The notes beneath the pieces are model-generated. The model worked only from the letters and a program-made list of their open reading frames with translations, had not been told where the DNA came from and did not search any database. A DNA stretch of 62,022 nt from a virus (lineage: Duplodnaviria > Heunggongvirae > Uroviricota > Caudoviricetes), in the IMG/VR virus record IMGVR_UViG_3300033489_000001, positions 1 through 62,022 of that record, one strand, 5' to 3'. Positions 2,157 to 34,169 of the stretch are shown in pieces. The translations under genes were made by a program, and so were the position numbers. Numbering within the stretch: position 1 is the stretch's first letter; every line of letters starts with the position of its first letter.

Positions 2157-2486
2157 CTAGACTATATCCTTCATAACTCTTTGAGCCAAAGAGACAGCTT
2201 TATCAGCTTGCTCCATGAGTCTTAGTATATTTGTGCTTCCTCCTGAAAGGGTAATACCGGCCCCTGACCTATCTAATAAACGTATGTACATCTCAGTTAA
2301 TCCAATAGATTGACGTGTAGACGCTAAATTTTGATCGATGCCCTGCAAAGTTGATACTGGATCTGGCATTGCCAAAACTTCTTGACCAGCCATTTTTAGA
2401 GCTTGTTCAAAAGCCGTACGGGGATTGAAAGCTTTACGTTCTTGCTTAGCAAGGGCTTGTTCAAATGCGATACGGGAATTCATCAA
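2157..2486 (-). CDS. Small protein with two copies of the NxRxAFEQAL tag (putative internal head protein)
   Basis: MNSRIAFEQALAKQ...FNPRTAFEQALKMA. Confidence 0.7.
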   Translation of the reverse strand: MMNSRIAFEQALAKQERKAFNPRTAFEQALKMAGQEVLAMPDPVSTLQGIDQNLASTRQSIGLTEMYIRLLDRSGAGITLSGGSTNILRLMEQADKAVSLAQRVMKDIV

Positions 2487-2989
2487 TAACCCTCCCTAAT
2501 TGCCTGCGTAATTTCGTGAGCGAGCTTAGCATCCACGGGATGTACAAGATCACGAAGCGCTTGTAGTGAAACGGATTCAGTTTCCCTCTTTGTCCAACCT
2601 AAACGTTTAGCAATGCGCTCGTGCAACTTGTCCATGTCATATCTTGCTAAGACCTGTTCGAAAGCCGTACGGGGGTTCATAACTTCCTTCTTTCCCGCCT
2701 CTAACTCTGCTCCATGCTCTGGATCAAGTTCAAGTAGAAGGGCTTGGAACTCCCCAACATGCGTCTTCTCTTCTTTAGCAACATCAAGTAGAACTTCTCT
2801 TACTCGCTTATTCTGAGTGCCCGAAGCCATTTGTTCATAAAGGCTCACAGCATCAAGCTCAGCAATTATGCTCAACCGTAAGATTTCTCTATCAAGATCC
2901 TCTGACCTAACTTTATGCAGATCTATGGGGATGTCGGCTAACATAGCGGTCTTGGCTAGAGCTTGTTCAAATGCTTTACGTGGGTTCAT
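2483..2989 (-). CDS. Encapsulin-associated ferritin-like (EncFtn/Flp-type) domain flanked by MNPRxAFEQxL tags
   Basis: EILRLSIIAELDAVSLYEQ...VLLDVAKEEKTHVGEFQALLLELDPE matches the ferroxidase pattern ExxA...Y...EExxH of encapsulated ferritins. Confidence 0.85.
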   Translation of the reverse strand: MNPRKAFEQALAKTAMLADIPIDLHKVRSEDLDREILRLSIIAELDAVSLYEQMASGTQNKRVREVLLDVAKEEKTHVGEFQALLLELDPEHGAELEAGKKEVMNPRTAFEQVLARYDMDKLHERIAKRLGWTKRETESVSLQALRDLVHPVDAKLAHEITQAIREGY

Positions 2990-3003
2990 AGGTATTTCAC
3001 AAA

Positions 3004-3312
3004 TCAGTATTGTCCATATTTGTAAAGTATATCGCCTGCGGCCTGGGCTGGCGTTTCAGGTAAGAATGTGACCGTCTTTCTAGATTTGTCGGCAGCTATA
3101 AAATCTGCTTTCAGCCACATAAACCCGCGTCCTTTATCAATCCAAAAAAGTTTGGCTTTATGCCTACCTTGTGGCTCCATCTCTACGAGTTCTTTTTCAA
3201 CCTGTTGCTTGAACTCATCATAGAGTCCGCTCATTCTACGAGCCATGGTCCAGTCTTTATTATCAGCCGCTTGTTTTACAAGGGCTTGCTCAAATGCCTT
3301 ACGAGGGTTCAT
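3004..3312 (-). CDS. Tagged small protein (putative internal head protein)
   Basis: Begins MNPRKAFEQALVKQAA. Confidence 0.7.
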   Translation of the reverse strand: MNPRKAFEQALVKQAADNKDWTMARRMSGLYDEFKQQVEKELVEMEPQGRHKAKLFWIDKGRGFMWLKADFIAADKSRKTVTFLPETPAQAAGDILYKYGQY

Positions 3313-3315
3313 AGA

Positions 3316-4605
3316 TCAATCTCCAAACTCTTTCTTATTCACGGCAGCATCTAGATGTTTTTGTTGAACGCGCAAGTTAGATAAAGCTTTATCGTTCTTA
3401 TCTCCGTGAGCTTTCTCAATTTGTTTATTAACAAGATCTTGATGCTTACGAAGTTTTTTCAAGGGCCACTTAACCATGTGACTAATGACCTTTTCAGTTT
3501 GCGTCTTCGTTAATTTAGTCAAATCTTTTGGAAGATCCGAAAAGTCATCTTTTGCTTCAGTTGAGGATCCTTTTTCTTTCTTGACTGTATGTTTAGACTT
3601 ATCCGCTCCTGGATGTGCTTTCAGATAGTCAGCTTTAGCTTCCTCAGAGGGGAATTCCATCGCAACCCGCTCTATAAGAAGAGCATGTTCAAAAGCCATG
3701 CGAATACTTGCACTCTTCTTACGCTTTTTAGCCTTAGGTTCATCCTGCTCATATAAATCGGTCAGGTACTTGGCCAGCCTATCTAAATCTTTTTTATCAT
3801 GCTCATCAGCAACTGGGTCATCTTTCAGCGCTTTAAGCTCACGTGCCGCCCCTAACAACTTCTCACGAGGCACAGGCTTTCCATTTGCAAAACTAGCACC
3901 AACTTCCGTCAAAGTTGGGGAATCAGGACTCTGCCATTCCCGAAGTTTACGACCGGTATCTTTATGATGTTCTGCCGGTGTGAAATTCTCTGGCCCAAAT
4001 TCCTCTTCTTCTCTTTTCCTTTTTTCTTCATCCCCAGAAGGTTTCTCTTTACCTTTAGAAGGTTCTTCAGTCTTCTTCACTGTATGCTTAGCTTTGTCCG
4101 CTCCCGGATGCTCTTTAAGATACTCGGCTTTGGCTTCTTCGGTTGGGAACTCCATTGCTTGCTTAAGGGCTTGTCCTTTTCGTTTATAGATTAAAGTTGT
4201 AGTAGTAAAGCCGCCTTCGGTTTGCACAAGGCTATAACCAGCATTCTCTAAACGAAGTTTTTCACGCTCAGCTTTCGTAATACTTCTAGGATCATCCCAA
4301 TTTATCTTGATTTCCTTTAGTTCGGTAACCCCTTGTTTCTCTAACGCTTGTTCAAATGCTGTTCTAGGATTCATAGGTATCTCCAAATTAGCAGATTTGG
4401 GTTTTTCTTGAGGGATATCCCTAACCGCCATGACCTCATCATCATTAATCTTCTCAATTTGTTTCTTGACTTTATTTCTATGATCTTCACAGACAGGAAT
4501 ATAAGCCCGGCCATCCGCCCATATATAGCCTTTAGTAGCAGGATTTTTACAATACGAACATTTTTGAGGCTCGTCTATATTTCCTGCGTAATGATCCATT
4601 AGCAC
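3316..4605 (-). CDS. Modular, highly charged polyprotein-like protein with internal tags and a duplicated module
   Basis: N-terminal CxxC...CxxH finger; internal MNPRTAFEQALEKQG and IRMAFEHALLIERVA; two copies of MEFPxEEAKAxYLKxHPGADKxKHTVKK. Confidence 0.7.
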   Translation of the reverse strand: MLMDHYAGNIDEPQKCSYCKNPATKGYIWADGRAYIPVCEDHRNKVKKQIEKINDDEVMAVRDIPQEKPKSANLEIPMNPRTAFEQALEKQGVTELKEIKINWDDPRSITKAEREKLRLENAGYSLVQTEGGFTTTTLIYKRKGQALKQAMEFPTEEAKAEYLKEHPGADKAKHTVKKTEEPSKGKEKPSGDEEKRKREEEEFGPENFTPAEHHKDTGRKLREWQSPDSPTLTEVGASFANGKPVPREKLLGAARELKALKDDPVADEHDKKDLDRLAKYLTDLYEQDEPKAKKRKKSASIRMAFEHALLIERVAMEFPSEEAKADYLKAHPGADKSKHTVKKEKGSSTEAKDDFSDLPKDLTKLTKTQTEKVISHMVKWPLKKLRKHQDLVNKQIEKAHGDKNDKALSNLRVQQKHLDAAVNKKEFGD

Positions 4606-5417
4606 TCATCCCATCCGTACTTACAAGCTCGAGGTAAAGTGTCACCAGGAGCGGGGCATGTTATCGAATCCTCTACTCGAAAGTAGCAATCTTTTTCCAC
4701 TATAGGATTACTAAAAGTTCTTTGGTATTTCCACCTAACAGCCCAAAGACCGGGCTGACCACATTCCCCAGCAGTCCCCGTGACATAATAGCATCCCACT
4801 CCTGAGGAAGCCGGAATGCGCCCGGAGGGACCTATTTGTTTTAGAGTACAACCTCTCTGCATTTGGTACAAAGTGTAGCTTATATTCACAGGGCCAAAAG
4901 GATTCCCAAAACGGTCTACAACGGAAAATTCTAAATCCCCCCGTGTAAATACATGGCTCCAACGAAAAGCTGTTGAAACCGTTGGGACTTCACAAATAGG
5001 TAGCGGAACATGAATAACTTCCATGTAAGCCGCAACAACTGCAACACCAAAAATAGGCTCAGGTATTGAAAGGGCTAAGTTACTAGAACCCCAAGTATAT
5101 CCCGAAAGGCCAATACTACGTCGCAGATCCCCTGTTATATTGCCGCTACCTACCGCAATTCCGGCGATTCCCATCAAACGAGCATCAATCAAAGCACCGG
5201 CACCAAGTAAGAAGCCGGACATATTAAATACCGCTTGAGTGCTTGCAGAAACGCTTGCAGAGCCAACTAGAGACTCTACAATCTCGTGCTTCAAGCTAGC
5301 TGAAGAACCGGCCGAACTTCCCCCTGTAGCCGCCCCTGAAAGACACGTAAAAACAGCTAACGACCCGTGTATGGTTGCTGATCCAGTTGCTGTTCCATTG
5401 AGATCATAAAGAGACAC
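4599..5417 (-). CDS. Virion fibre/structural protein (Gly/Ser/Ala-rich repeats plus C-terminal Ig-like domain)
   Basis: Amino acid composition; C-terminal domain is paralogous to the N-terminus of 1236..2150. Confidence 0.5.
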   Translation of the reverse strand: MSLYDLNGTATGSATIHGSLAVFTCLSGAATGGSSAGSSASLKHEIVESLVGSASVSASTQAVFNMSGFLLGAGALIDARLMGIAGIAVGSGNITGDLRRSIGLSGYTWGSSNLALSIPEPIFGVAVVAAYMEVIHVPLPICEVPTVSTAFRWSHVFTRGDLEFSVVDRFGNPFGPVNISYTLYQMQRGCTLKQIGPSGRIPASSGVGCYYVTGTAGECGQPGLWAVRWKYQRTFSNPIVEKDCYFRVEDSITCPAPGDTLPRACKYGWDEC

Positions 5418-5436
5418 ATGAGTTCTCTCTTATTGT

Positions 5437-5778
5437 CTACTTTTGAAGAAAACGTGAAGCTACACGTTCAGTAAGAAGAACCCGTTCGAAAGTTTTGACC
5501 GGATCTACCGTCTCGTTCGCAGTCTTTTGCACTATTTCTCTAGCGCCATCAACAAGGAGTTTTTTCACTTTAAGAATATTTTTTCTATGCTCTTCTATCC
5601 AGTTCTGTATATCTTTTGGGGGAATACAGACATCTTTCATAGATCGAAGCCAATGTTCGAAAGTATCTAAGCTACTTAATTGCCCCTTGACCGAAGCTAT
5701 GCTGTCTACTAACTCAGCCAACAATTCCGAAGGGACTAAATCACGACTCAGTTTAACTTCTTTACTTACAGCCTTCAT
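5437..5778 (-). CDS. Hypothetical protein with a C-terminal tag variant
   Basis: Ends VDPVKTFERVLLTERVASRFLQK. Confidence 0.6.
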   Translation of the reverse strand: MKAVSKEVKLSRDLVPSELLAELVDSIASVKGQLSSLDTFEHWLRSMKDVCIPPKDIQNWIEEHRKNILKVKKLLVDGAREIVQKTANETVDPVKTFERVLLTERVASRFLQK

Positions 5779-13121: not shown

Positions 13122-13199
13122 GTTATAAAGTCTCCTTTATAACTTCGGCCAAACAAGGAATCTTCATTCCTTGTTGTGATGCCATCCGTAAGCCACGGA
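13122..13199 (-). ncRNA. Putative omegaRNA scaffold hairpins overlapping the tnpB 3' end
   Basis: Three consecutive stems: 13185-13199, 13152-13175 (10 bp) and 13122-13143 (9 bp). Confidence 0.45.
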
Positions 13200-14268
13200 C
13201 TAAAATTTCTCTTGCTGAATTGTGATCTCTCCCTATTGAAAGACCACAATTAGGACAGAGGTGCCAACGATCTCTTAAGGTCTTAGGAACCTTAGTCCCA
13301 CACCGCGAACAATCCTGCGTAGTGCCCCTTGGATCAACCGCAACGACCGTCTTCCCAGCCTCTTCCGCTTTGAAATTCAGGCAAGCAGCATATATGGCCC
13401 AAGCAGCATCATGTATGGATTTGGGTTTAGCTTTATTAGACTTAGCCATCCCTTTGATGTCCAAATCCTCAATAGCTACTAGGTCATATTTAGAGACTAC
13501 CTCCTTAGCTAACTTTCTAGCAAAATCTAGGCGTTGGTTATGGGTATGTTGATAAGCCTTACTGACCAAAAGCTTAGCTCTCTTACGAGAATTGGATCTC
13601 TTGTTTTTCTTATGAACCAGCTTCTGCTGCCTATAGGCTATAAGAGCTTCTGATTTTTGGAAGAATCTTGGATTCTTAACCTCAGACCCATTGGAATGGA
13701 CAGCAAAATGAGTGAGGCCTACGTCTATACCGATGGCAGTCTTGATCTCAACTTTGGGAAGAGCCACACTCAAGTCACAAACGATAGAGGCTTCCCAACC
13801 CTTACAGGTTTTTCGAACGTGGGCTTCTAGAGGGGTTCCTTTGAGCGGCCGATAAAGATGAAGTCTGACTTGGCCAAATTTTGTAATTGTAAGGAGATTT
13901 CCCTTTATTATGGGACTCGGAAAGCTGAATGAATCGTAACGATCTTTGCCCTTGAATCGAGGGAATCCTGGCTTTTGGCCCTGTTTAATTCGTCTAAAAA
14001 AAGCCTTATAGGCCTTGTCTAATCGGTTGAGAGGAGATCTAAGAATAATAGCCGCGATAGATCCATAACCTTCAAGATCAGCTTCACGAAGCTCCGTTAA
14101 ATCTTTGTGCTGATCATACCTTGAAACGGTCTTCTTTTGCTTTCGGTAGGCCTCCCGTCTCTGCTCAAGGGCTGCATTATAGAGTCTTTGACAATTTAGA
14201 CGGATTTCATCTAAGCCAGCTTCTTCTTGCTGATTTAATCGAAGAGGATATCTGAAAGCTCTAATCAT
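13123..14268 (-). CDS. tnpB: IS200/IS605-family RNA-guided endonuclease TnpB with intact RuvC
   Basis: N-terminal AFRYPLRL...LYNAALE; RuvC GIDVG, IEDL and RDHNSA; zinc finger CSRCG...CPNCG. Confidence 0.93.
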   Translation of the reverse strand: MIRAFRYPLRLNQQEEAGLDEIRLNCQRLYNAALEQRREAYRKQKKTVSRYDQHKDLTELREADLEGYGSIAAIILRSPLNRLDKAYKAFFRRIKQGQKPGFPRFKGKDRYDSFSFPSPIIKGNLLTITKFGQVRLHLYRPLKGTPLEAHVRKTCKGWEASIVCDLSVALPKVEIKTAIGIDVGLTHFAVHSNGSEVKNPRFFQKSEALIAYRQQKLVHKKNKRSNSRKRAKLLVSKAYQHTHNQRLDFARKLAKEVVSKYDLVAIEDLDIKGMAKSNKAKPKSIHDAAWAIYAACLNFKAEEAGKTVVAVDPRGTTQDCSRCGTKVPKTLRDRWHLCPNCGLSIGRDHNSAREILVRGLRMASQQGMKIPCLAEVIKETL

Positions 14269-23714: not shown

Positions 23715-25661
23715 TTATGTTCTTTTCTGAAAAACTAACAACGGTTCCGTTCGCGCCTCTTGACCTATACTACCAATAGGTAAGGCTAAAGTTGAGATGT
23801 GAATAAAATCGGATTCCTTTGCGAACACTGTTAATTCATCCGCTATAGGATAAACAATATTCTGCATCTTGATATTTTTAGTGTTTACACAAAAAATCCC
23901 CCCTGGTTTAAGATAAGACTTAGATTTATTTACCAATGGGTGCAGGAAGTTTTCCACCCAAGCTGTCCAAGTTAGATAGCGTACCCAACTTTGTTTTACA
24001 TCATCCGAATAGCGCTCAACACAGTAATACGGAGGGCTAGTAAATACCAAATCCACTTGGGTGGTAGCATTAAGTGAAACATCTTCAAAAGCTTCATTAA
24101 TCAAGGTTAAAGAATTTGAATCAAAAAAAGAAGACAACTGTTTAAATGCTTCTGGTGCTTTTGGATGAGGCTCTATTCCAATATAACGCCTACCTGAAGC
24201 TAAAGTACCTGATGCCCTGCCCCCATAACCTGCGCAAGGATCAAGTACTACTCCATTTTCCGGACAAAAATGATCAACAATGGCTTTAGCCAAAGATGGT
24301 CTGAAATTCGTTGGCGCATGACTAATAGCTTGAATAGCTCTAAATATTCGTTTTACCGATAATCCGTGTCCTCTCCCCCATTGAAAATAAATAGCTTGTC
24401 TTAAAAGTTCCGGATTTGCCCAAGCCTGTCTAACAGAGGTTCCTCGGTAATATCTTGCATCAAATCGATAAGGAAAGCATTGGTTGCAAATAGAATAACC
24501 AGCTTGAGAAACCTTCTTGAATAACCCGTCAACATCCAAATAAGTAGGAGCTTTTCGTAATTGGTTAGCTTCTAGCAATAAAGATGCATGATCCCAGATT
24601 GTAACCGGAAACTCTACTTGCAAAAGGATATTTACTATATTTGACGCTTGTTCATAAATATCATCATCTTCCTCAGTGATAACCTGTTCTGCAATCAAGG
24701 AATCCACTTCTTCTATCGAAAGAATTGTTCTCTTTGGAGGCCTCCCAGCCTTATTACGCTCAAACCCATATTTATCTAATGCACGTCTAAGATTACTTCT
24801 TGGAACACCTAAAATCTTAGCAATTCTATCCGCAGGAATTCCTCGTTCAACAAAAGGTTTGATTGCATCTTTTGTTAAAATGTTTCTAGCCGAAGGCCCC
24901 CGCTTGCGAGATTTAAGTTCCAACTTATAGGACATGCAAGACGGGACATGTGGTGCAATCAAATCAACAAACTTAGTGATGGCATCACGTCCTCCAGCTA
25001 TACGAACAGTCGATTCTCCACCTTCCCCATAAATTCTTCCATCAAAACCAAATATAGACAGAATGTGGATTTGAACTTTCTGACTCCCTAAATCGGGACC
25101 AATAGCAAACCTTACATAAGAATCATTTTTCGAGCCATCGTCCAAATACCACACGGCAAGGGCAAGGGCATCAACCACTTTGGGGTCAAGAAGTTTAACG
25201 GTTTTATTTCCAAACCCTTCCGGATAAAACAATTTCCAATATGGTTTGAACACTCTGGCTGCATGAGTCCTAAATTGAAATCCTTTGTGTTTACCCTTGT
25301 TATGAGGAGTTAACTTCTGAACAGAAAAAGGCTCGAATTCTTTAACCTTCCACTCCAAATACCGTTTCTGCTGAATAGAATGAAACTCACAAAAACTAGC
25401 TGTATCTTCACCTGTGGAATACAGTCTACCATCACCAAGCATAGATCCAACTAAAATGGATTGCAGGCGACTTGATAGTAAAAGTGGTAAATTTAATCGA
25501 TCAGATTTAAGTATAGTCTGAATACCATACTTCTGACGTAGACGACTTATAGTTGTTTGTGTAGCACCATATTCCTTAGCTATCTGAGTATCAGTAAGAC
25601 GTTCATCTAAGTATAATTGACGTAAAATCTCCTCTGAAATAAATTGGCCACGAGCCGTCAT
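23715..25661 (-). CDS. LAGLIDADG homing endonuclease fused to an amino-DNA methyltransferase (start moved to ATG 25661)
   Basis: LAGLIDADG motifs ILVGSMLGDG and ALAVWYLDDGS; MTase motifs VLDPCAGYGG and VFTSPPY; promoter directly upstream of ATG 25661. Confidence 0.85.
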   Translation of the reverse strand: MTARGQFISEEILRQLYLDERLTDTQIAKEYGATQTTISRLRQKYGIQTILKSDRLNLPLLLSSRLQSILVGSMLGDGRLYSTGEDTASFCEFHSIQQKRYLEWKVKEFEPFSVQKLTPHNKGKHKGFQFRTHAARVFKPYWKLFYPEGFGNKTVKLLDPKVVDALALAVWYLDDGSKNDSYVRFAIGPDLGSQKVQIHILSIFGFDGRIYGEGGESTVRIAGGRDAITKFVDLIAPHVPSCMSYKLELKSRKRGPSARNILTKDAIKPFVERGIPADRIAKILGVPRSNLRRALDKYGFERNKAGRPPKRTILSIEEVDSLIAEQVITEEDDDIYEQASNIVNILLQVEFPVTIWDHASLLLEANQLRKAPTYLDVDGLFKKVSQAGYSICNQCFPYRFDARYYRGTSVRQAWANPELLRQAIYFQWGRGHGLSVKRIFRAIQAISHAPTNFRPSLAKAIVDHFCPENGVVLDPCAGYGGRASGTLASGRRYIGIEPHPKAPEAFKQLSSFFDSNSLTLINEAFEDVSLNATTQVDLVFTSPPYYCVERYSDDVKQSWVRYLTWTAWVENFLHPLVNKSKSYLKPGGIFCVNTKNIKMQNIVYPIADELTVFAKESDFIHISTLALPIGSIGQEARTEPLLVFQKRT

Positions 25662-25669
25662 AGTTGACC

Positions 25670-25698
25670 AGTATAAACTGTCCAAAAGTACCTGTCAA
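25670..25698 (-). promoter_or_regulatory. Sigma70-type promoter (near-leaderless)
   Basis: TTGACA-17 nt-TATACT, 8 nt before ATG 25661. Confidence 0.75.
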
Positions 25699-25891: not shown

Positions 25892-26770
25892 CTAGACACG
25901 AGTGATAACTACGCGGGTTAAACCACGCGGGTTGAACGCGCCCAGACCCAGATTCTCGAAACAACTGAAGCCAATTGTCCGAGCCTTTGGATCATCTGCC
26001 GACAAAACGGTGATCTCGGTGCGCACGGGTATCCTGCCGAATTGTTCGGGTTCGCAGCAAACATAGGCGAAGCCAGCCGGGACGAGCCTGGACGTGATAA
26101 TCTGGGCACCCCACAGAACGGATTGGAGGCCGGTCTTGAGCAGAGTGGCCTGACTCTCGATATCCAAGATGTCACGACCGAACTTACGGATGTCTGCGTA
26201 ATCCACGGAATTCATGTATACACGAGCTACACGAAGGTCATGGCGTTCTACCTCAGCAAACGCATCGGCAAGAACCGCAGGCGAGATCGGAGCAACCACC
26301 GGAACATCCGGGTTGGTTTGCGCCGGTAGCGTATCGTAACCCGAGATAGCAATGCTATCCAGGATTGCGAAAGCACGCTCATCTTCCGCCGCCTGAATCT
26401 GAGCCTTTGCCAAATCCTGAGCACGTTCGATTAAGTCGAACCGACGTTCTTTGATTTGGGTCAGCGGGATTTCAGGGTTAGAAGCGATCTCAAACAAGGG
26501 GAAGATCACGCGGCGTGGCTTCTGGATAGCAAGAATATTCTCGCCTTCCTCACCCACAACGTAAGCGGTCACATCCGGGTCCTTGTCATAGATCGGCAGG
26601 GCACCGTCCGGAAGCTGTTCGACCAGGAAGGTCTTACGACCAACGGCCGAATAGTCACGGCGGAGACGTAACGGTTGGATCATTGAAGCAGCGAGTTTTG
26701 CACGACCGGCAGCGGTCTTGATATACTCACTGATAACTTGCTGTTTGACTTCGTTGGATACTTGTCCCAT
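25892..26770 (-). CDS. Major capsid protein, HK97 fold
   Basis: Lies after protease, scaffold and decoration genes; GC-richer, apparently biased codon use; HK97-like segments (GRKTFLVEQL, VYMNSVDYADI, LWGAQIITS, GLGAFNPRGL). Confidence 0.85.
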   Translation of the reverse strand: MGQVSNEVKQQVISEYIKTAAGRAKLAASMIQPLRLRRDYSAVGRKTFLVEQLPDGALPIYDKDPDVTAYVVGEEGENILAIQKPRRVIFPLFEIASNPEIPLTQIKERRFDLIERAQDLAKAQIQAAEDERAFAILDSIAISGYDTLPAQTNPDVPVVAPISPAVLADAFAEVERHDLRVARVYMNSVDYADIRKFGRDILDIESQATLLKTGLQSVLWGAQIITSRLVPAGFAYVCCEPEQFGRIPVRTEITVLSADDPKARTIGFSCFENLGLGAFNPRGLTRVVITRV

Positions 26771-27541: not shown

Positions 27542-28876
27542 TTATTTGATACCAAAAGCATCCCGGACATCGGGAGCTGTCTGCCAAAGAGCAGATAGTG
27601 ACTCGATGGTAGCGTTATCGGACTTAGCACCGGCACCACCTAGCTTTGCAACTCCAGCAGTAGGACGAGTGCCTACCGTACGGGTAGACGCTGTACGAAT
27701 TGATGCTTGCTTCTCTTGCTCTTGCTCTTGTCCTTTACCTTGATCTTTTTCTTCCTGACTATCATCTTGAGCAAATAAGGTTCGCAGAACTTCATCCTCA
27801 GCACCTAGGTCATCCACTCCAACGTCCATCGGAGCTGGGTCCATCTGAATGTCCCCTTCAGCTAACCCACAACCGGCAAGCATTTGATCCAACACTTGTG
27901 CATCTTGCTGAGCTTGCTGTTGTTGATCCTGAACGGGAGCTTGAGCAGGAGTTTGCTGTTGAGCCTGCTGTTGTTGATCCTGAACAGGAGCTTGAGCAGG
28001 GGCTTGAACAGGGGCTTGTTGCTGTTGAGCTTGCTGTTGCTGCATAGCTTGCTGAATCATCTGTTGAACTTGCTGAGCTACTTGCTGTTGCTGAGCCTGT
28101 TGGCTCTGTTGTTGCTGTTGAGCCTGTTGCTGTTGATCTTGAGCAGGGGCTTGAGCAGGGGCTTGTTGTTGCTGTTGAGCCGTCTCAACCATCTGCTTGA
28201 TTTGCTCTTGAGCCTCAGCGAGCTTTCCGGCCTGAATTTGCTGAATCACCTGTTGCGCCATTTGCTGCATCTCGCCAGCTGTCTTGGCGGGCCAATTCTT
28301 GTTGGATTTCTCGTTTTGATCGTCTTTCTTGCCCTTAGCTTCTTCAGCTTGCTTTTCCTGACCCTGACCCTGATCCTTGGTATCGTCTTTCTTATCTTCT
28401 TCCTGCCCAGCTTGCTTCTCTTGCTCTTTGTCTCCGTCTTTGTCGTCATCTTCATCAGCGGCCATGCGCTTATGAGTATTGATCAACTCTTGATCCGGAA
28501 GGTGCATCAAAGCCACGGCCTGATCTTCGATAGCTTCCGTTGAAGCTTGCTTCAACATGAGCTGAGCTACCGCAATACAAAGATCAGCTTTCTTGAGCAA
28601 GACCTCTTTCGATGCCGTCTTCTCAGTATGATTAAATGTGTCAGGACGTACTTGGGGCATCCCAATCTCATCCCTGGCCGTTTGGTCATCCTTATACTCA
28701 GTCTCCCACGTATTCGGTGAGTGAACATCCTCAGCAAATGCTGATGGATCACCCGAAACATACTTATCCCAAGGAGGTTGAGGATGTTCCTGATTCATTG
28801 TATATGGGTCCGCTGTTTTTAGGGCAGCAAACTTAGTCTGAACTTCTTGACAATTCCAAGTTGAACGTTCACGCAT
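27542..28876 (-). CDS. Prohead scaffolding protein with a Gln-rich low-complexity core
   Basis: Lies between protease and MCP; acidic/Q-rich; short C-terminal helix LSALWQTAPDVRDAF. Confidence 0.7.
   Translation of the reverse strand: MRERSTWNCQEVQTKFAALKTADPYTMNQEHPQPPWDKYVSGDPSAFAEDVHSPNTWETEYKDDQTARDEIGMPQVRPDTFNHTEKTASKEVLLKKADLCIAVAQLMLKQASTEAIEDQAVALMHLPDQELINTHKRMAADEDDDKDGDKEQEKQAGQEEDKKDDTKDQGQGQEKQAEEAKGKKDDQNEKSNKNWPAKTAGEMQQMAQQVIQQIQAGKLAEAQEQIKQMVETAQQQQQAPAQAPAQDQQQQAQQQQQSQQAQQQQVAQQVQQMIQQAMQQQQAQQQQAPVQAPAQAPVQDQQQQAQQQTPAQAPVQDQQQQAQQDAQVLDQMLAGCGLAEGDIQMDPAPMDVGVDDLGAEDEVLRTLFAQDDSQEEKDQGKGQEQEQEKQASIRTASTRTVGTRPTAGVAKLGGAGAKSDNATIESLSALWQTAPDVRDAFGIK
27890..28270. repeat. 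Coding poly-Gln / QAPAQAPVQDQQQQAQ repeats
   Basis: Repeated gcttgagcagg and ctgttgttg units. Confidence 0.85.
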
Positions 28877-28937: not shown

Positions 28938-30398
28938 TCACGACCGTCCCAGGGCATATAAGCGACCTTTTTCTAACAATTGGGCCGCTTCATTACCTGT
29001 TACCCTTCCGCCTAATACCTGACGACAAGCCGCCAAGTATGTCTCTACATCTTCATATGGGCCTGTCCCGCCCACACTAAGGACAGTCCTATAAACTCTC
29101 TTTTCACCGGCTATAGATGATTTTTTAGTCATCAAATCCAAAACTCTAGATACGGCTAAGATTTCCCTACCGTTAAAGCCTGCTTTTTTCACCAGAGGCC
29201 AACCTCCATGATTATGAAGGATTAGGCCATAAAGAACTCTCTTACCTTCTTTTGATTTTCCAACAAAAGAAAACACCAAATTAGCAACTTTACGCCATTT
29301 TGGTTGTTGTATTGCCGATCGAATTAGAGATTCGTTCTGTTTATTAGGATTCGCATCCCGAACAGCATTCACTTCCCCCTTACTAATTTCTTTACGTACT
29401 CTCTCTATTACTTGTTCCCGTAAAGTGTTAGTTAGATCTGCAACGGCTTTTTGAATTGGGTCTTCTTCTTTAGATTGTTCAGGTGTCGGCCCACTCTCCG
29501 ATGGAGGATCATCTGCCCACTTTTGATAAGCAGCCTTGAGCATGGCATTAGGGTCAACTACTGGAGGGGGTAGCGTAAATGCCATGTGCATTTTATCTTC
29601 TACCTCTTGAATTTCTTCAGCCGAAAGGATGCTTCTAAGAACTGCACCTCTAAATGCTGGATTAGCAACCCATGACGCTTCTATAAAGCGCACTGAGGAT
29701 GGATCTCGGAAGTTCCCACACAGCTCTGCGGTCTTAGTTTTATGGCCTAATTCATTTACGAATTCTTGGCCTTTAAAAAACTTAACACAATTGCAAAGTT
29801 GAGTCTCGTCGAGGGCTACATTCCCACATTTTGTACACGTCGTAGTCGCTGTACTGCAACCCATCGACAAAGTACCAAGCTGGCCGTTCTTGATAGCCCT
29901 AATCAACGAGGCGTGTTTCAACTCATTGGCAATCAAGATATCTATATATATAGAATCACCAACATCCCGAGCCGCCGCATCAATAATACGACCTCTTGAT
30001 AATTCAGGAATTTGCACATGCTCTACGTAGCTGAATGCACCAATGAAAGTCTTGAATGTAGTAAGCAGAAGCTTACGCTCGAACGAGTCGTTATTATTGT
30101 TAATAAAATTAACAGTGTTAGGAGTGATATAGTAATCAGAATACTTCCGATCGATTTCAAAACCATCTATGAAATGCCGACCTAGTGGAGCTAAAGAGTT
30201 CTCAACATCTACAGAAGCCACGATAGTCGCGTGGCTCAACATATACTTAGATGGATCGTACTCTTGAAGAATTATCTGAGCAGTTTTCTTCTGAAAATCT
30301 GGAGCAGGGATCACTGCATTACGACGCAAAATGTCCCATTCGGCAAATTTAATGTCGGGCTTTTGCAGCGTTGCTCTAGCGTATTTGAGAAAGGCCAT
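28938..30398 (-). CDS. Prohead (maturation) protease, HK97/herpes assemblin-like, with a zinc-ribbon insert
   Basis: NNNNDSF, YVEH, GRIIDA, LSMGC, CTKCG...CNC and FIEASWVANPAF. Confidence 0.85.
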   Translation of the reverse strand: MAFLKYARATLQKPDIKFAEWDILRRNAVIPAPDFQKKTAQIILQEYDPSKYMLSHATIVASVDVENSLAPLGRHFIDGFEIDRKYSDYYITPNTVNFINNNNDSFERKLLLTTFKTFIGAFSYVEHVQIPELSRGRIIDAAARDVGDSIYIDILIANELKHASLIRAIKNGQLGTLSMGCSTATTTCTKCGNVALDETQLCNCVKFFKGQEFVNELGHKTKTAELCGNFRDPSSVRFIEASWVANPAFRGAVLRSILSAEEIQEVEDKMHMAFTLPPPVVDPNAMLKAAYQKWADDPPSESGPTPEQSKEEDPIQKAVADLTNTLREQVIERVRKEISKGEVNAVRDANPNKQNESLIRSAIQQPKWRKVANLVFSFVGKSKEGKRVLYGLILHNHGGWPLVKKAGFNGREILAVSRVLDLMTKKSSIAGEKRVYRTVLSVGGTGPYEDVETYLAACRQVLGGRVTGNEAAQLLEKGRLYALGRS

Positions 30399-31370: not shown

Positions 31371-34169
31371 TTACGGAGCAAGCGGGCGGCCGGTTGAAGA
31401 CTTACCATGATGAACAGCCGAAGACTGATCATCTCCATAAGCCTTCATGTAGGGCTCATTTGCCTCGGTCTGAATCGGAGCCATCGGATTACGGAATGCA
31501 TCCATGTACCCTTCGTCCGCATCCTTCTGGATTACCTCAGCCGTCTTCCCAATAAGCTGAGCCTGACGAATGGTAAGAGACTTCTCACCGTAGGCCGCTT
31601 TCTCCAAGTCGTCAGCAATCTTGTCGATCTCGTTTACGATAGCCTTAGCTGCCGCAAACTTGATGCCCCAAGCTTCGTGCTTTTCCTGTACCACAGCCGC
31701 TGTGCGATCCAAACGGGCAAGAAATTGATCAACAATTTGACTATTCAATTCTACTTTAGACATCTTTTCCCTCACTGTTTTTGAGTTAGCCGTAACCGTC
31801 AATAAAGTCTCGTCTTGAGGCTTTGCAGCCAAACGAGACAAAAGATTGTTATATAAAGTCGGATGAATTGCATGATCGTAATTTTCACTACGAAGCGCAA
31901 GATCAAGAGCAGCTCTTATTTGTGTATCCCTAACTATCCCCTCAATATTAGTGGACAATACGGGCGTCTTGAGCCATTCCCGAGCAACTTTCAATAACCG
32001 AGTAAAATCTTGCTCGGTTAGATCCCTAGCACTAGGTTGTTCCCAACCTGGATAGGGATGGACCTTTCCGGGGGCCACACCCCAATAAACAGCGTTACGC
32101 TTCATATTATCCATCGTAAAAGGATTGGAATAAGTAAAAAAAGAATTAAAAAGATAACGTGACGCTACTCTGGCAATAATTTCATTCCTGGCGGTTCTCT
32201 TCTTGAAGGAATCCCAAAGCTGCCCTGCTGACTCCTCTAACTGTTGAGGCTTTTTACGCTTCAAATCATATCGGGGCGGTTTTATAGGCTCTTGAGGCTC
32301 AAAAATTCCTCTAACTATTAACCGATCAACACCGGAAGGAGGTGGTTCAAGCTTTGGGTCAAAAGTTGATTGAACCAAATAGTTGGCCTGTTCTTTATTA
32401 AAATCTCTTTCCGCTTTTTCCTTCTCTTTTTGATACTTACTCAATGTCCTCTTGTGCTTCCTAAGAGCTTTATCGTAATAATGATTGTCCTCCACATCTA
32501 AACGTTCTTGAACTTCTGGTACTTTCTCAGGAACTAAAGCCCTAAGCTGCCGCAATACCCGCTCTTGAAAAGTTATAGCGGTGTCCTGCATAGTGGTGCC
32601 CTCAGGGTAACGTTCCGTCCGTTTCCTGAGCATATTCATAGCGTCACCCAAACCCCTAGCAATCTCTCTCGACGGCTGTTGCTCAGAAATAGCATCCTTT
32701 GACTCAGGGTCTAAAAATTGTCTACGCGCATCCTGATAATCCCGAGCTTGAAAATAAGCCACGGCTACTTTTTTTGCCGCAGGGTCTTTATCTGTTGCCT
32801 TCAAAACTTTTTCTATAGTTTGTTCTGAAAGAGGCTTATCCTCAGTTAATTCAAGAGCCTTATAGAAGAGCTTTCCCGCTTTTTCAGAAGCTCTCCTATC
32901 ACGATCTGTGGGAGATTCCTTATGCCCCGATAACGTAAAATCGGCTAAATCATCGGCTAAATCTTTAGGAACCCCGGCATTAGCTTCAAAACTTCGTGCA
33001 ATAGCACTTCGAGCCCCCAAACTCATAGCTAACGTTTGAATTTGATGTTTGCGGAGCGCTTTGGTTTGCTCAACCTCAGGCAAATCTTTATAAGGGACTT
33101 CTTCCCCTCCCTTATTTATAGCCGTCTTCGGAGGTGCAACTTTATTAGGATCTGTTGTATATACCTTAGAGATACTCTCACGAACTTTGTCAATAGCATT
33201 CAACCTTACAGGGAGAGCCCGAGCGGTATGGTAATCAGAAATTAAGGTGCTAACCTCATCCGGATGTATAGGAGGCCTAACCAACATCAAACTCACAGCG
33301 GTCTCTGTTGGAAAAGTTTGAATCAGTTGCCTCTGCGCGGCACTCAACTCATCCCTGGTATAAGGACGGGATGGAGCCCCCGGAGCTATCTCTGGTTTGA
33401 ACTCTTCAGGTGTCTTGGACTTGGTTTCCTTAGGTACCTTGGGCTTAGTTTCCTTTTCTTTCTTAGCTTCCGGTTCCTTAGTCTTTTTAGGTTTCTTAGC
33501 TTCTGGAAGTTCCTTAGTTAAAAGAACACGCTGCAAATCTCCCATGGTCTTGATACCCTTAGGAGGAGTTCGACCACGCATAAACTGACCTATTGGAGTA
33601 TCAGGGGCTGATTTTGCCCACTGAAACATATCGGACTCAGGGGTTGTAAAATCTTTAAGAATGGAAGCAAATTCAGGATCGTCTTTAGCTAGCTCATTAA
33701 GAGCTAGCTTTGTCTCAGGGTCCGATAATTTTTTACCCTCTTCTCCTTTTGACGGTTTTTCTTCTAAGGGTTTCTTCTCCTTAGTAGGTGTTTTCTCCGA
33801 AGATTTTTCCTCTTCTTCTACTGTTTCATATTCAGCAGGTGAACCTTTCACGGTCTCCGGACTAACCCAACCTATCCAACCCGTATCCTTCTTAATAACC
33901 TTGACCTTACCCTCGGATTCGGGCTTACCTTTCGCCCAACGATTAACAATTCGGGCAGAAAGAGAGCCCCCAATGGTCTTATAATTCCGGGATAAATCGT
34001 GATCCCCTTTCAAATCGTGATCAGAATCCACATCCTGATCACGATCCGATTGCATCTCTTCCCTACGCCGGTCGGGACGAGGAGGTTTAACTTTAGGGCT
34101 CTCCCGTACTAAACGTTCAGCCTCTTCGTTCTCACGTTCCAGTTCAGTCTTTGTTGCTAAGCGCCACAT
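31371..34169 (-). CDS. Large charged putative internal head protein (possible internal start near MDNMKRN)
   Basis: Lys/Glu-rich; contains RIVNRW and RVASRY tag-like motifs; lies in the head module. Confidence 0.55.
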   Translation of the reverse strand: MWRLATKTELERENEEAERLVRESPKVKPPRPDRRREEMQSDRDQDVDSDHDLKGDHDLSRNYKTIGGSLSARIVNRWAKGKPESEGKVKVIKKDTGWIGWVSPETVKGSPAEYETVEEEEKSSEKTPTKEKKPLEEKPSKGEEGKKLSDPETKLALNELAKDDPEFASILKDFTTPESDMFQWAKSAPDTPIGQFMRGRTPPKGIKTMGDLQRVLLTKELPEAKKPKKTKEPEAKKEKETKPKVPKETKSKTPEEFKPEIAPGAPSRPYTRDELSAAQRQLIQTFPTETAVSLMLVRPPIHPDEVSTLISDYHTARALPVRLNAIDKVRESISKVYTTDPNKVAPPKTAINKGGEEVPYKDLPEVEQTKALRKHQIQTLAMSLGARSAIARSFEANAGVPKDLADDLADFTLSGHKESPTDRDRRASEKAGKLFYKALELTEDKPLSEQTIEKVLKATDKDPAAKKVAVAYFQARDYQDARRQFLDPESKDAISEQQPSREIARGLGDAMNMLRKRTERYPEGTTMQDTAITFQERVLRQLRALVPEKVPEVQERLDVEDNHYYDKALRKHKRTLSKYQKEKEKAERDFNKEQANYLVQSTFDPKLEPPPSGVDRLIVRGIFEPQEPIKPPRYDLKRKKPQQLEESAGQLWDSFKKRTARNEIIARVASRYLFNSFFTYSNPFTMDNMKRNAVYWGVAPGKVHPYPGWEQPSARDLTEQDFTRLLKVAREWLKTPVLSTNIEGIVRDTQIRAALDLALRSENYDHAIHPTLYNNLLSRLAAKPQDETLLTVTANSKTVREKMSKVELNSQIVDQFLARLDRTAAVVQEKHEAWGIKFAAAKAIVNEIDKIADDLEKAAYGEKSLTIRQAQLIGKTAEVIQKDADEGYMDAFRNPMAPIQTEANEPYMKAYGDDQSSAVHHGKSSTGRPLAP

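Follow-up and report, generated by a model that had tools for sequence, protein, structure and literature searches.

A portable N-terminal peptide on interchangeable modules of a huge phage: a candidate address for loading proteins into the head

A shared N-terminal leader that loads proteins into the phage head is a known kind of device. Phage T4 internal proteins IPI–III and Alt carry a capsid targeting sequence (CTS; Mullaney & Black, reviewed in PMC3012670); in P1 DarB, the 30 residues at the N-terminus serve as a head-targeting signal (PMC9024508). N-terminal propeptides of SPN3US are cleaved after A-X-E by gp245 (PMC10052503), and across phiKZ, 201phi2-1 and SPN3US the propeptides of head and ejection proteins are cut after A-X-E by gp175 or gp245 (PMC10052503, PMC7411985). 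The particle proteome of phage G reportedly includes a ferritin-like protein and many enzymes (10.1101/2024.12.16.628780). Here we analyse a stretch of 62,022 nucleotides (the window), the first 62 kb of the 411,618-bp virus record IMGVR_UViG_3300033489_000001, which has direct terminal repeats and 44% G+C, and in which a peptide of the form MNPR(K/T)AFEQAL, hereafter the NPR tag, recurs along five consecutive open reading frames (ORFs). The tag is selected as a peptide and heads interchangeable modules at translation starts; our best reading, to which we assign a probability of about 45%, is that it would act as an address peptide loading proteins into the assembling head in the manner of the T4 CTS.

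The T4 or P1 targeting sequence, the former already invoked in the initial annotation of this DNA, remains the closest working analogy. As in T4 and in P1 DarB, a short N-terminal peptide sits on otherwise unrelated, fast-changing proteins, some of them encoded near head genes; as with T4 Alt, the cargo of the wider leader to which the tag belongs includes an ADP-ribosyltransferase, along with nucleic-acid enzymes; and the tag, like the CTS, holds a candidate Glu-type protease site. The sequence of the T4 CTS is MKTYQEFIAE. It has only M1 and the F at position 7 in common with MNPRKAFEQAL, and the two are not related in sequence. Unlike the CTS, the tag occurs in a phage of a different capsid lineage (with a phage G-like, HK97-type major capsid protein, MCP), its units are often nested in frame, and it forms part of a three-part leader with a folded mini-domain; for the tag, packaging and cleavage are predicted. 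The phiKZ and SPN3US propeptides resemble this system in coming from giant phages, in being N-terminal and about 20 residues or longer, in their A-x-E motif and in the large multi-site protein encoded beside the protease; they differ in not being one conserved portable tag, and the kinship of the proteases rests on a weak fold match (Z 6.5). The leader sequence family, its three-part build, the nested-cistron arrangement and the graft onto an encapsulated-ferritin (EncFtn) domain described below were not found in the libraries and literature searched.

Tag copies and selection on the peptide

Positions and ORF names are given in window coordinates, and nearly all genes of the window lie on the − strand. 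Eight copies of the tag stand in five consecutive ORFs at 2.1–5.8 kb, all on the − strand and exactly where the initial annotation had placed them. Within 2.4–5.5 kb, six copies follow the canonical form (M)NPRxAFEQ(A/V)L and two are variants:

2397–2429, − strand: tandem second tag FNPRTAFEQAL, without Met, in ORF 2157–2486
2451–2483, − strand: N-terminal tag MNSRIAFEQAL of ORF 2157–2486 (109 residues)
2648–2680, − strand: second tag MNPRTAFEQVL, inside ORF 2483–2989, heading a 53-residue C-terminal module
2957–2989, − strand: N-terminal tag MNPRKAFEQAL(AKTA) of ORF 2483–2989 (168 residues)
3280–3312, − strand: N-terminal tag MNPRKAFEQAL of ORF 3004–3312 (102 residues)
4342–4374, − strand: tag MNPRTAFEQAL at residue 78 of ORF 3316–4605 (429 residues), after a Cys-rich 77-residue N-terminal module
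5440–5508, − strand: C-terminal variant VDPVKTFERVLLTERVASRFLQK of ORF 5437–5778, which includes the second leader segment RVAxRF

A variant copy reads IRMAFEHALLIERVAMEF in ORF 3316–4605, and ORF 5437–5778 ends in the C-terminal variant TFERVLLTERVASRFLQK directly before its stop codon. A whole-genome motif scan, proposed earlier as a check, shows the tag concentrated at 2.4–5.5 kb: six-frame searching of all 411,618 bp with [AT]FE[QRH][AV]L returned eight matches at 2414–5493 and one weak match elsewhere. The corresponding degenerate DNA pattern matched six times in the window, where 100 shuffles gave an expectation of 0.00, and the whole genome contained these six matches plus one with two mismatches, as against none in the reversed control.

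Synonymous variation among the DNA copies had been taken to mean selection on the peptide, and the codon comparison bears this out. Among the six canonical copies, pairwise differences amount to 12%, 11% and 52% at codon positions 1, 2 and 3, and codon pairs differ synonymously 68 times and non-synonymously 21 times, most of the latter at the one free position. The flanks differ by 69% (27 nt upstream) and 61% (15 nt downstream), close to random. Given this third-position excess between near-random flanks, the tag is selected as a peptide and not as DNA.

The conserved unit exceeds ten residues and reads M-N-P-R-K-A-F-E-Q/E-A-L-x-K-Q/T-A/G. The K-x-A/G tail noticed earlier is real, appearing as AKTA, VKQA, EKQG and LKMA in the window, and x-K-x-[AGS] stands in register after AL in roughly 45% of about 45 tags (read by eye). 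To judge from its residue pattern, the tag is predicted to form an amphipathic helix with a single hydrophobic stripe (A5, F6, A9, L10, A14) behind an N-P cap, a stripe that K-x-A prolongs. Cleavage at K-x-A, as originally proposed, is thus one possibility only: A-F-E, present in all six canonical tags and matching the A-x-E motif, is a second candidate site that fits the rule of giant-phage prohead proteases.

Translation starts and cargo modules

Across this phage, its relatives and metagenome contigs, 43 distinct tag matches less six unrelated chance matches left 37 tags. More than half (21 of 37) begin within 12 residues of the first start codon, and a Met lies within three residues upstream of 11 of the remaining 16; about 32 of 37 directly follow a Met. 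A short N-terminal peptide is thus common to unrelated proteins, as for a T4-type CTS. Thirteen tags that are preceded by Met and have an open upstream frame of at least 13 codons were taken as seemingly internal and examined for a Shine–Dalgarno (SD)-like site, taken as GGAG, GAGG, AGGA or AAGG at −17 to −4. Such a site precedes 12 of the 13, compared with 176 of 1,567 (11.2%) ordinary internal ATGs of this genome, and also 15 of the 17 tags that come after a stop; in the window, GGAG lies upstream of the tag of ORF 3004–3312, AAGGAAG 4 nt before the ATG of MNPRTAFEQVL in ORF 2483–2989, and GGAG 8 nt before the ATG of MNPRTAFEQAL in ORF 3316–4605.

It follows from these SD-like sites that translation starts, or until very recently started, at the internal tags. 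The earlier description of the ORFs as tag-cargo-tag-cargo strings is not supported by this result: for the most part, the long ORFs are better taken as cistrons nested in frame, each having an SD and an ATG of its own, and they could yield both fused and short products. In-frame nested head genes are exemplified by lambda C/Nu3 and P2 gpO. Here, as there, an internal in-frame SD and ATG lie within an ORF of the head-assembly region and the long and short products would share a C-terminus; unlike in lambda C/Nu3, a conserved leader peptide stands at the internal start and the arrangement is repeated along several ORFs. The tag therefore appears to be essentially an N-terminal leader, not an internal linker. 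Met-less copies also exist (FNPRT at 2429, tandem second copies in relatives, and ASINPRK in contig L136), and so the tag is tolerated internally too. In two protease-clade contigs (L257 and L259), a LIRLAHANPxLR-type helix, akin to one of the helices of the wider leader described below, stands at the extreme C-terminus of proteins of 429 and 1,293 residues; together with the variant ending ORF 5437–5778, these helices mean that such labels are not strictly N-terminal.

The clearest cargo is the mini-ferritin of ORF 2483–2989, at

2678–2899, − strand: EncFtn-type mini-ferritin domain, residues 31–104 of ORF 2483–2989

Pfam matched this ORF to Rubrerythrin (1.3e-8) and to EncFtn-like (27.1 bits, for a cut-off of 27), and its best matches in the Protein Data Bank (PDB) are Pyrococcus furiosus EncFtn (5n5e, 2.9e-23) and the P. 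furiosus encapsulin fusion (2e0z, 2.9e-22); Myxococcus xanthus EncC and EncB come next. The domain belongs to the EncFtn family and keeps the ferroxidase E/ExxH pattern (AELDA...EEKxHVGEF in the alignment to 5n5e), with about 60% identity to P. furiosus EncFtn over 74 residues (by eye). More than 7,800 relatives were found at E<=1e-3, mostly stand-alone proteins of about 93 residues from Patescibacteria, DPANN archaea and Actinomycetota that start with MLSQIPIDL and end with ..KKEV. The phage ORF is built as MNPRKAFEQALAKTA, then MLADIPIDL...KKEV, then MNPRTAFEQVL and the 53-residue module; that is, the 15-residue tag abuts the native Met of a complete foreign EncFtn-type protein of 93 residues.

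The comparison with encapsulins (PDB 5n5e, 2e0z, 5da5) is close in some respects: EncFtn-type cargo with E...ExxH, an HK97-fold shell and the logic of a short peptide joined to a cargo. In others it fails. The family 1 encapsulin loading peptide is C-terminal with a G-S-L-type motif, whereas the tag is N-terminal, predicted helical and without such a motif, and ORF 2483–2989 has no encapsulin-type loading peptide; the encapsulin cargo gene adjoins the shell gene, whereas here it lies 23 kb from the MCP gene; and most close homologs of the phage domain, the nearest included, are free-standing 93-residue proteins, found in bacteria of the candidate phyla radiation and in DPANN archaea.

The modules behind the tags recombine. 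Database relatives P0016–P0018 carry the EncFtn unit, then the tag, then three different downstream modules, and the post-tag module of P0017 (INWNDP..GYSLVQTEGGF) recurs here, as INWDDP..GYSLVQTEGGF, behind the tag of ORF 3316–4605; the module of ORF 3004–3312, a separate ORF in this phage, forms in the syntenic contig L136 the downstream part of an in-frame fusion with another module. The tags therefore border independently shuffling units. The view of the tag as a portable, selected peptide heading interchangeable modules is upheld by the peptide-level selection, the EncFtn graft and this module reuse: the tag stands at translation starts, is grafted onto complete foreign domains, and modules shuffle at it. 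That the tags precede unrelated domains is shown only by the EncFtn module and by the absence of similarity among the cargos. Only one tagged cargo of the window, ORF 2483–2989, has a Pfam domain, and searches of the tag-bearing ORFs against Pfam and PHROGs gave no family except EncFtn. In a 398-kb relative (G001), a tagged ORF starting MDPRRAYEEAL (contig L030, 2324–2947) carries DUF5661 (2.2e-14), the only other Pfam domain found on an NPR-tagged cargo.

Shuffling at the tags, and the SD-like sites before 27 of 30 of them, would also be expected if the tag were a portable gene-start cassette, a mobile SD–ATG–leader DNA module or a recombination hotspot that captures genes, with the peptide incidental. 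Such a cassette sits badly with third codon positions that differ by 52% against 11–12%, with 69% divergence in the 27 nt upstream, with 68 synonymous against 21 non-synonymous differences and with tags that lack a Met, and we consider it very improbable.

The wider composite leader

The initial annotation presented the tag as a new peptide. Its sequence family was indeed not found in the libraries searched; what does not hold is that it stands alone, for it is the first segment of a wider leader. The full form, in homologs of ORF 3316–4605, is NPRKAFE[HQ]ALL[VI]xRVA[SA]R[FY]..AMEFPTEEAxxxYLKxHPGADKSKHTVKK, followed by a K/E-rich linker. In this genome its FPTEEA..HTVKK core motif occurs twice, both times in ORF 3316–4605 (scores from a core-motif hidden Markov model, HMM):

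4072–4221, − strand: first FPTEEA..HTVKK core motif of ORF 3316–4605 (HMM 1.5e-18)
3577–3726, − strand: composite leader copy IRMAFEHALLIERVAMEFPSEEAKADYLKAHPGADKSKHTVKK of ORF 3316–4605 (HMM 5.1e-18)

A leader profile of six sequences, searched against 1.84 billion representative proteins (clusters at 50% identity), picked out 1,252 proteins at E<=1e-3, 180 of them at E<=1e-10; most are 60–400 residues long with the motif at residues 10–60. The core has invariant Y, H and A and nearly invariant F, A, L, P, D, H and V, and is preceded by one of four kinds of amphipathic helix: NPR/AFEHAL..RVAxRF, LIRLAHxNPELRxxLLPLL, VAxELLxVAKEL, or RVAARF alone. A-[MIT]-[ED] stands directly before FPTEE. Leader proteins searched against Pfam and PHROGs matched no family for the leader; weak matches to Pfam MHB (mycobacterial haemophore, haem-binding) over the YLxxHP stretch arose in 12 of 144. 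Whatever its function, the FPTEEA..HTVKK leader is thus a large conserved family (>1,250 clusters at 50% identity) without a Pfam or PHROGs entry. Its most conserved residues are Tyr, His and His (Y-x-x-x-H-P ... H, for example at 3577–3660 and 4072–4155 of the window), and a metal or haem site in the core is possible.

An AlphaFold2 (AF2) model of leader protein P0181 packs helix 4–22 on a small alpha/beta unit at 26–50 (model confidence, pLDDT, 84–96), followed by a disordered stretch at 55–80 and then the cargo. The leader model matched nothing in BFVD below E 0.2 and only meaningless sub-structures in the ESM Atlas, and in VIA-wide its match list was filled by helical cargo and was uninformative on the leader fold.

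Pfam domains on leader proteins include topoisomerase I, ferritin, zeta toxin, HD/RelA-SpoT, GNAT and ADP-ribosyltransferase, and further GH-E nuclease, HEPN and OAS-like domains. The middle segment, RVxx[RK][FY], occurs 18 times in this genome against 5 in the reversed control; among the proteins bearing it are a topoisomerase IB, where it is close to the N-terminus, a zeta-toxin-like kinase, an OAS-like protein and a DUF2442–DUF4160 fusion. Topoisomerase IB, zeta-toxin kinase, OAS-like and ferritin or ferritin-like cargo recur under different leader versions in different phages. A broader and more doubtful proposal is that huge phages of the phage G-like lineage possess a previously undescribed modular address-label system that loads a variable range of enzymes, toxin-like effectors and also a mini-ferritin into the capsid for co-injection. 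Its labels would be the helices NPRKAFEQAL, RVAARF/Y, LIRLAHxNPELR and VAxELLxVAKEL, with or without the 27-residue Tyr/His/His mini-domain FPTEEAxxYLKxHPxADxSKHTVKK; the NPR tag would be one young, lineage-specific label, and the whole would amount to encapsulin-style cargo loading in a true virus.

The AF2 packing of helix on mini-domain also suits an explanation that does not necessarily involve the capsid. Here the tag would be a docking helix that gathers tagged proteins on a hub: the helix would pack in cis on the FPTEEA..HTVKK mini-domain, helix-only tags would bind the mini-domains of ORF 3316–4605 in trans, and the resulting multi-protein complex could be, for example, an accessory of the neck or head or a factory in the cytoplasm. 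The copy numbers are favourable, since core motifs are few (0–4 per genome in related huge phages): this phage has six helix-only tags and two core motifs, both in one protein of the tag cluster, and in G001 there are 14 tags, with three core motifs in a single 1,013-residue protein of the tag cluster. They are unfavourable in two other tagged relatives, G002 and G019, which have no core-motif match, and since a hub could itself be a packaged adaptor it is compatible with packaging; as a separate explanation we think it unlikely.

Head genes, proposed function and neighbouring genes

The head genes that matter to the function of the tag, and the genes that bound or interrupt the tag cluster, are as follows:

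1236–2150, − strand: head-tail connector-like gene bounding the tag cluster, a homolog of Tunturi_5 gp319 'head-tail connector protein'
4599–5417, − strand: untagged conserved 272-residue gene within the tag cluster
25892–26770, − strand: MCP (phrog_2522, 3.6e-49)
27542–28876: Gln-rich scaffold-like protein
28938–30398, − strand: prohead maturation protease (phrog_18299, 1.3e-9)
31371–34169, − strand: 932-residue protein adjoining the protease, with ARIVNRW near residue 72 and ARVASRY at residue 666

The MCP is 83% identical to that of uncultured phage LR745208.1, 46% to that of Tunturiibacter phage Tunturi_5 and 39% to gp27 of Bacillus phage G. The tag cluster (2.2–5.8 kb) lies about 20 kb from the MCP, scaffold and protease genes on the same strand and is not beside a capsid gene; it is flanked by the connector-like ORF 1236–2150 and, on the other side, two head-fibre-like genes of the Gp80 type (Pfam 'podophage GP4 fiber I', PHROG 'head protein'), and lies in virion-gene territory. 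The C-terminal domain of ORF 4599–5417 is paralogous to the N-terminal domain of ORF 1236–2150 (26–31%, cross tblastn).

Elsewhere, leader genes too are often close to genes for the head or neck. Within 6 kb of 16 of 51 viral leader loci are homologs of the protease, scaffold or MCP (L195, L199, L200, L210, L217, L228, L229, L240 and L241) or of ORFs 4599–5417 and 1236–2150 (L194, L196, L198, L201, L207 and L213). Homologs of ORF 4599–5417 adjoin leader ORFs in L194, L198, L201 and L207, and in L217 a leader gene stands between protease and scaffold. Homologs of the 932-residue protein bear the full leader near their N-terminus in L195 and L199 and, across 78 protease loci, keep RV[AV]AR[FY] at both positions; a reversed control of these loci has 10 matches to RVxx[RK][FY], the loci themselves 73, many of them at residues 3–14 of small proteins and others in the large protein beside the protease.

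The protease has 1,426 homologs, its family being present in 497 viral stretches, and matched no Pfam family. Its AF2 model (pLDDT 75.7) has T4 gp21 (5jbl) as top match, a weak one (Foldseek E 0.02); VIA-align gives Z 6.5 with a root-mean-square deviation of 3.8 over 123 aligned residues, only about 0.7 Z above unrelated rows. The Pfam family of T4 gp21 (PF03420) is uninformative, since it has no match in this genome or in the control genomes. The family has a helical C-terminal domain of about 170 residues and four invariant cysteines (C181, C188, C191 and C202) in an insert at residues 181–202, which suggest a zinc ribbon inside the protease domain.

The gp21 match is one of several points that would also fit tags acting as processing sites or linkers only, the ORFs being polyproteins cut by the prohead or another protease at A-F-E| or K-x-A| with no targeting: all canonical tags contain A-x-E, and A-[MIT]-[ED] directly precedes FPTEE, SPN3US gp245 cuts after A-X-E (PMC10052503), and the ORF 3004–3312 module is fused in L136 and separate here. 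Yet most tags sit at true N-termini, where a cut would remove just 8–15 residues; internal tags keep an SD and ATG of their own, needless for a pure cleavage site; and ten conserved residues exceed what known prohead-protease sites require. We therefore regard pure processing as distinctly unlikely.

Under the head-loading reading, the helix would mark a variable set of small proteins for the prohead core or the inner capsid surface. Each tag-cargo unit would be its own cistron, and where the upstream stop has been lost, fused and short forms would both be possible. The leader would run from the helix through RVAxR[FY] and the FPTEEA..YLKxHP..KHTVKK mini-domain to a disordered K/E-rich linker, and huge phages with the same prohead protease family appear to put this composite leader on enzymes and toxin-like domains. 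The helix would bind a prohead-internal component, so that the cargo is enclosed; the gp21-like protease would perhaps clip the leader at A-F-E| or K-x-A|, its candidate sites; and the cargo may enter the host together with the DNA. Head binding, proteolytic removal and host delivery are inferred. The scaffold or the 932-residue protein would be a likelier receptor than the MCP, since the MCP of LR745208.1, a phage without the tag, is 83% identical.

Several observations pull the other way. The absence of the tag from LR745208.1 makes the MCP an unlikely receptor. MCP, scaffold and protease have no tag-like site, so that tag and protease are not linked by a cleavage motif in common; the MCP N-termini of relatives have no conserved Glu site, only a conserved [IL][KR][TS]AAGR that may be structural. 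As a general neighbour of the protease the core motif was rejected, since just 6 of 78 protease loci have it within 10 kb, and in G001 and G002 some tagged ORFs are outside the main cluster and far from head genes. EncFtn-like proteins are mostly free-standing and cellular, so an EncFtn cargo does not by itself imply encapsulation. Finally, no cultured phage among 50,697 phage records carries tag or leader.

If the head-loading reading is true, the injected protein arsenal of uncultured huge phages, including ferritin, topoisomerase IB, zeta-type kinases, ADP-ribosyltransferases and nucleases, becomes readable from their genomes; the 15-residue handle and 50-residue folded leader could serve for packaging foreign proteins in large capsids; and the system offers a concrete case for asking how cargo and the logic of its loading came to be common to phage capsids and encapsulins.

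The NPR tag is confined to a narrow sub-clade of phages of about 400 kb with a phage G-like MCP. Matches to the tag pattern number 14 in G001 (398 kb), 9 in G002 (416 kb) and 5 in the fragment G019, with none in the controls; LR745208.1, Tunturi_5 and phage G have none, nor do 17 other huge phages with this protease family. The tag is also present in metagenome contigs L118, L136, L143 and L155, of which L136 is fully syntenic with 3.0–20.7 kb of the window. Searches for cultured relatives among the same phage records, by blastn of the region and tblastn of the leader, gave no match.

A bacterial origin of the tag was considered and set aside. There were 53 matches in genome contigs, about 40 of them a Blastocatellia penicillin-binding-protein motif, NPRLAFEQAFPPGSAIKPF, and the rest scattered chance matches; in that motif the YT of the DNA pattern reads as Phe. 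Penicillin-binding proteins of Blastocatellia and Pyrinomonadaceae (L041–L092) share an invariant GRLRAVVNPRLAFEQAFPPGSAIKPF around the SxxK active site, and it is this stretch that mimics the tag at the level of the DNA pattern.

A protein of the DUF7487 or homing-endonuclease-like type with KYGxENPxQ repeats lies directly downstream of the connector gene (3–1172, − strand), and DUF7487-type repeat proteins also follow that gene in relatives (L001, 5888–7165; L040, 1143–2576). In LR745208.1 at 352–372 kb (L040), the homolog of ORF 1236–2150 is split in two with an endonuclease-like ORF between the pieces, the second of which apparently has an intein-like insert. An 877-residue ORF of G001 (L001, 1192–3825) has an apparent intein with a LAGLIDADG-like insert (..VGDRVLS...VHNC; by eye). 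The virion-gene region of the window also contains a TnpB-like gene (13123–14268, − strand; OrfB_IS605 3.8e-23, Cas12f1-like TNB 2e-17). Beside the MCP gene, a 656-residue ORF (23715–25685, − strand) shows by eye helix–turn–helix-like repeats and a C-terminal methyltransferase-like motif (TSPPY), and may be a mobile endonuclease or methylase insert.

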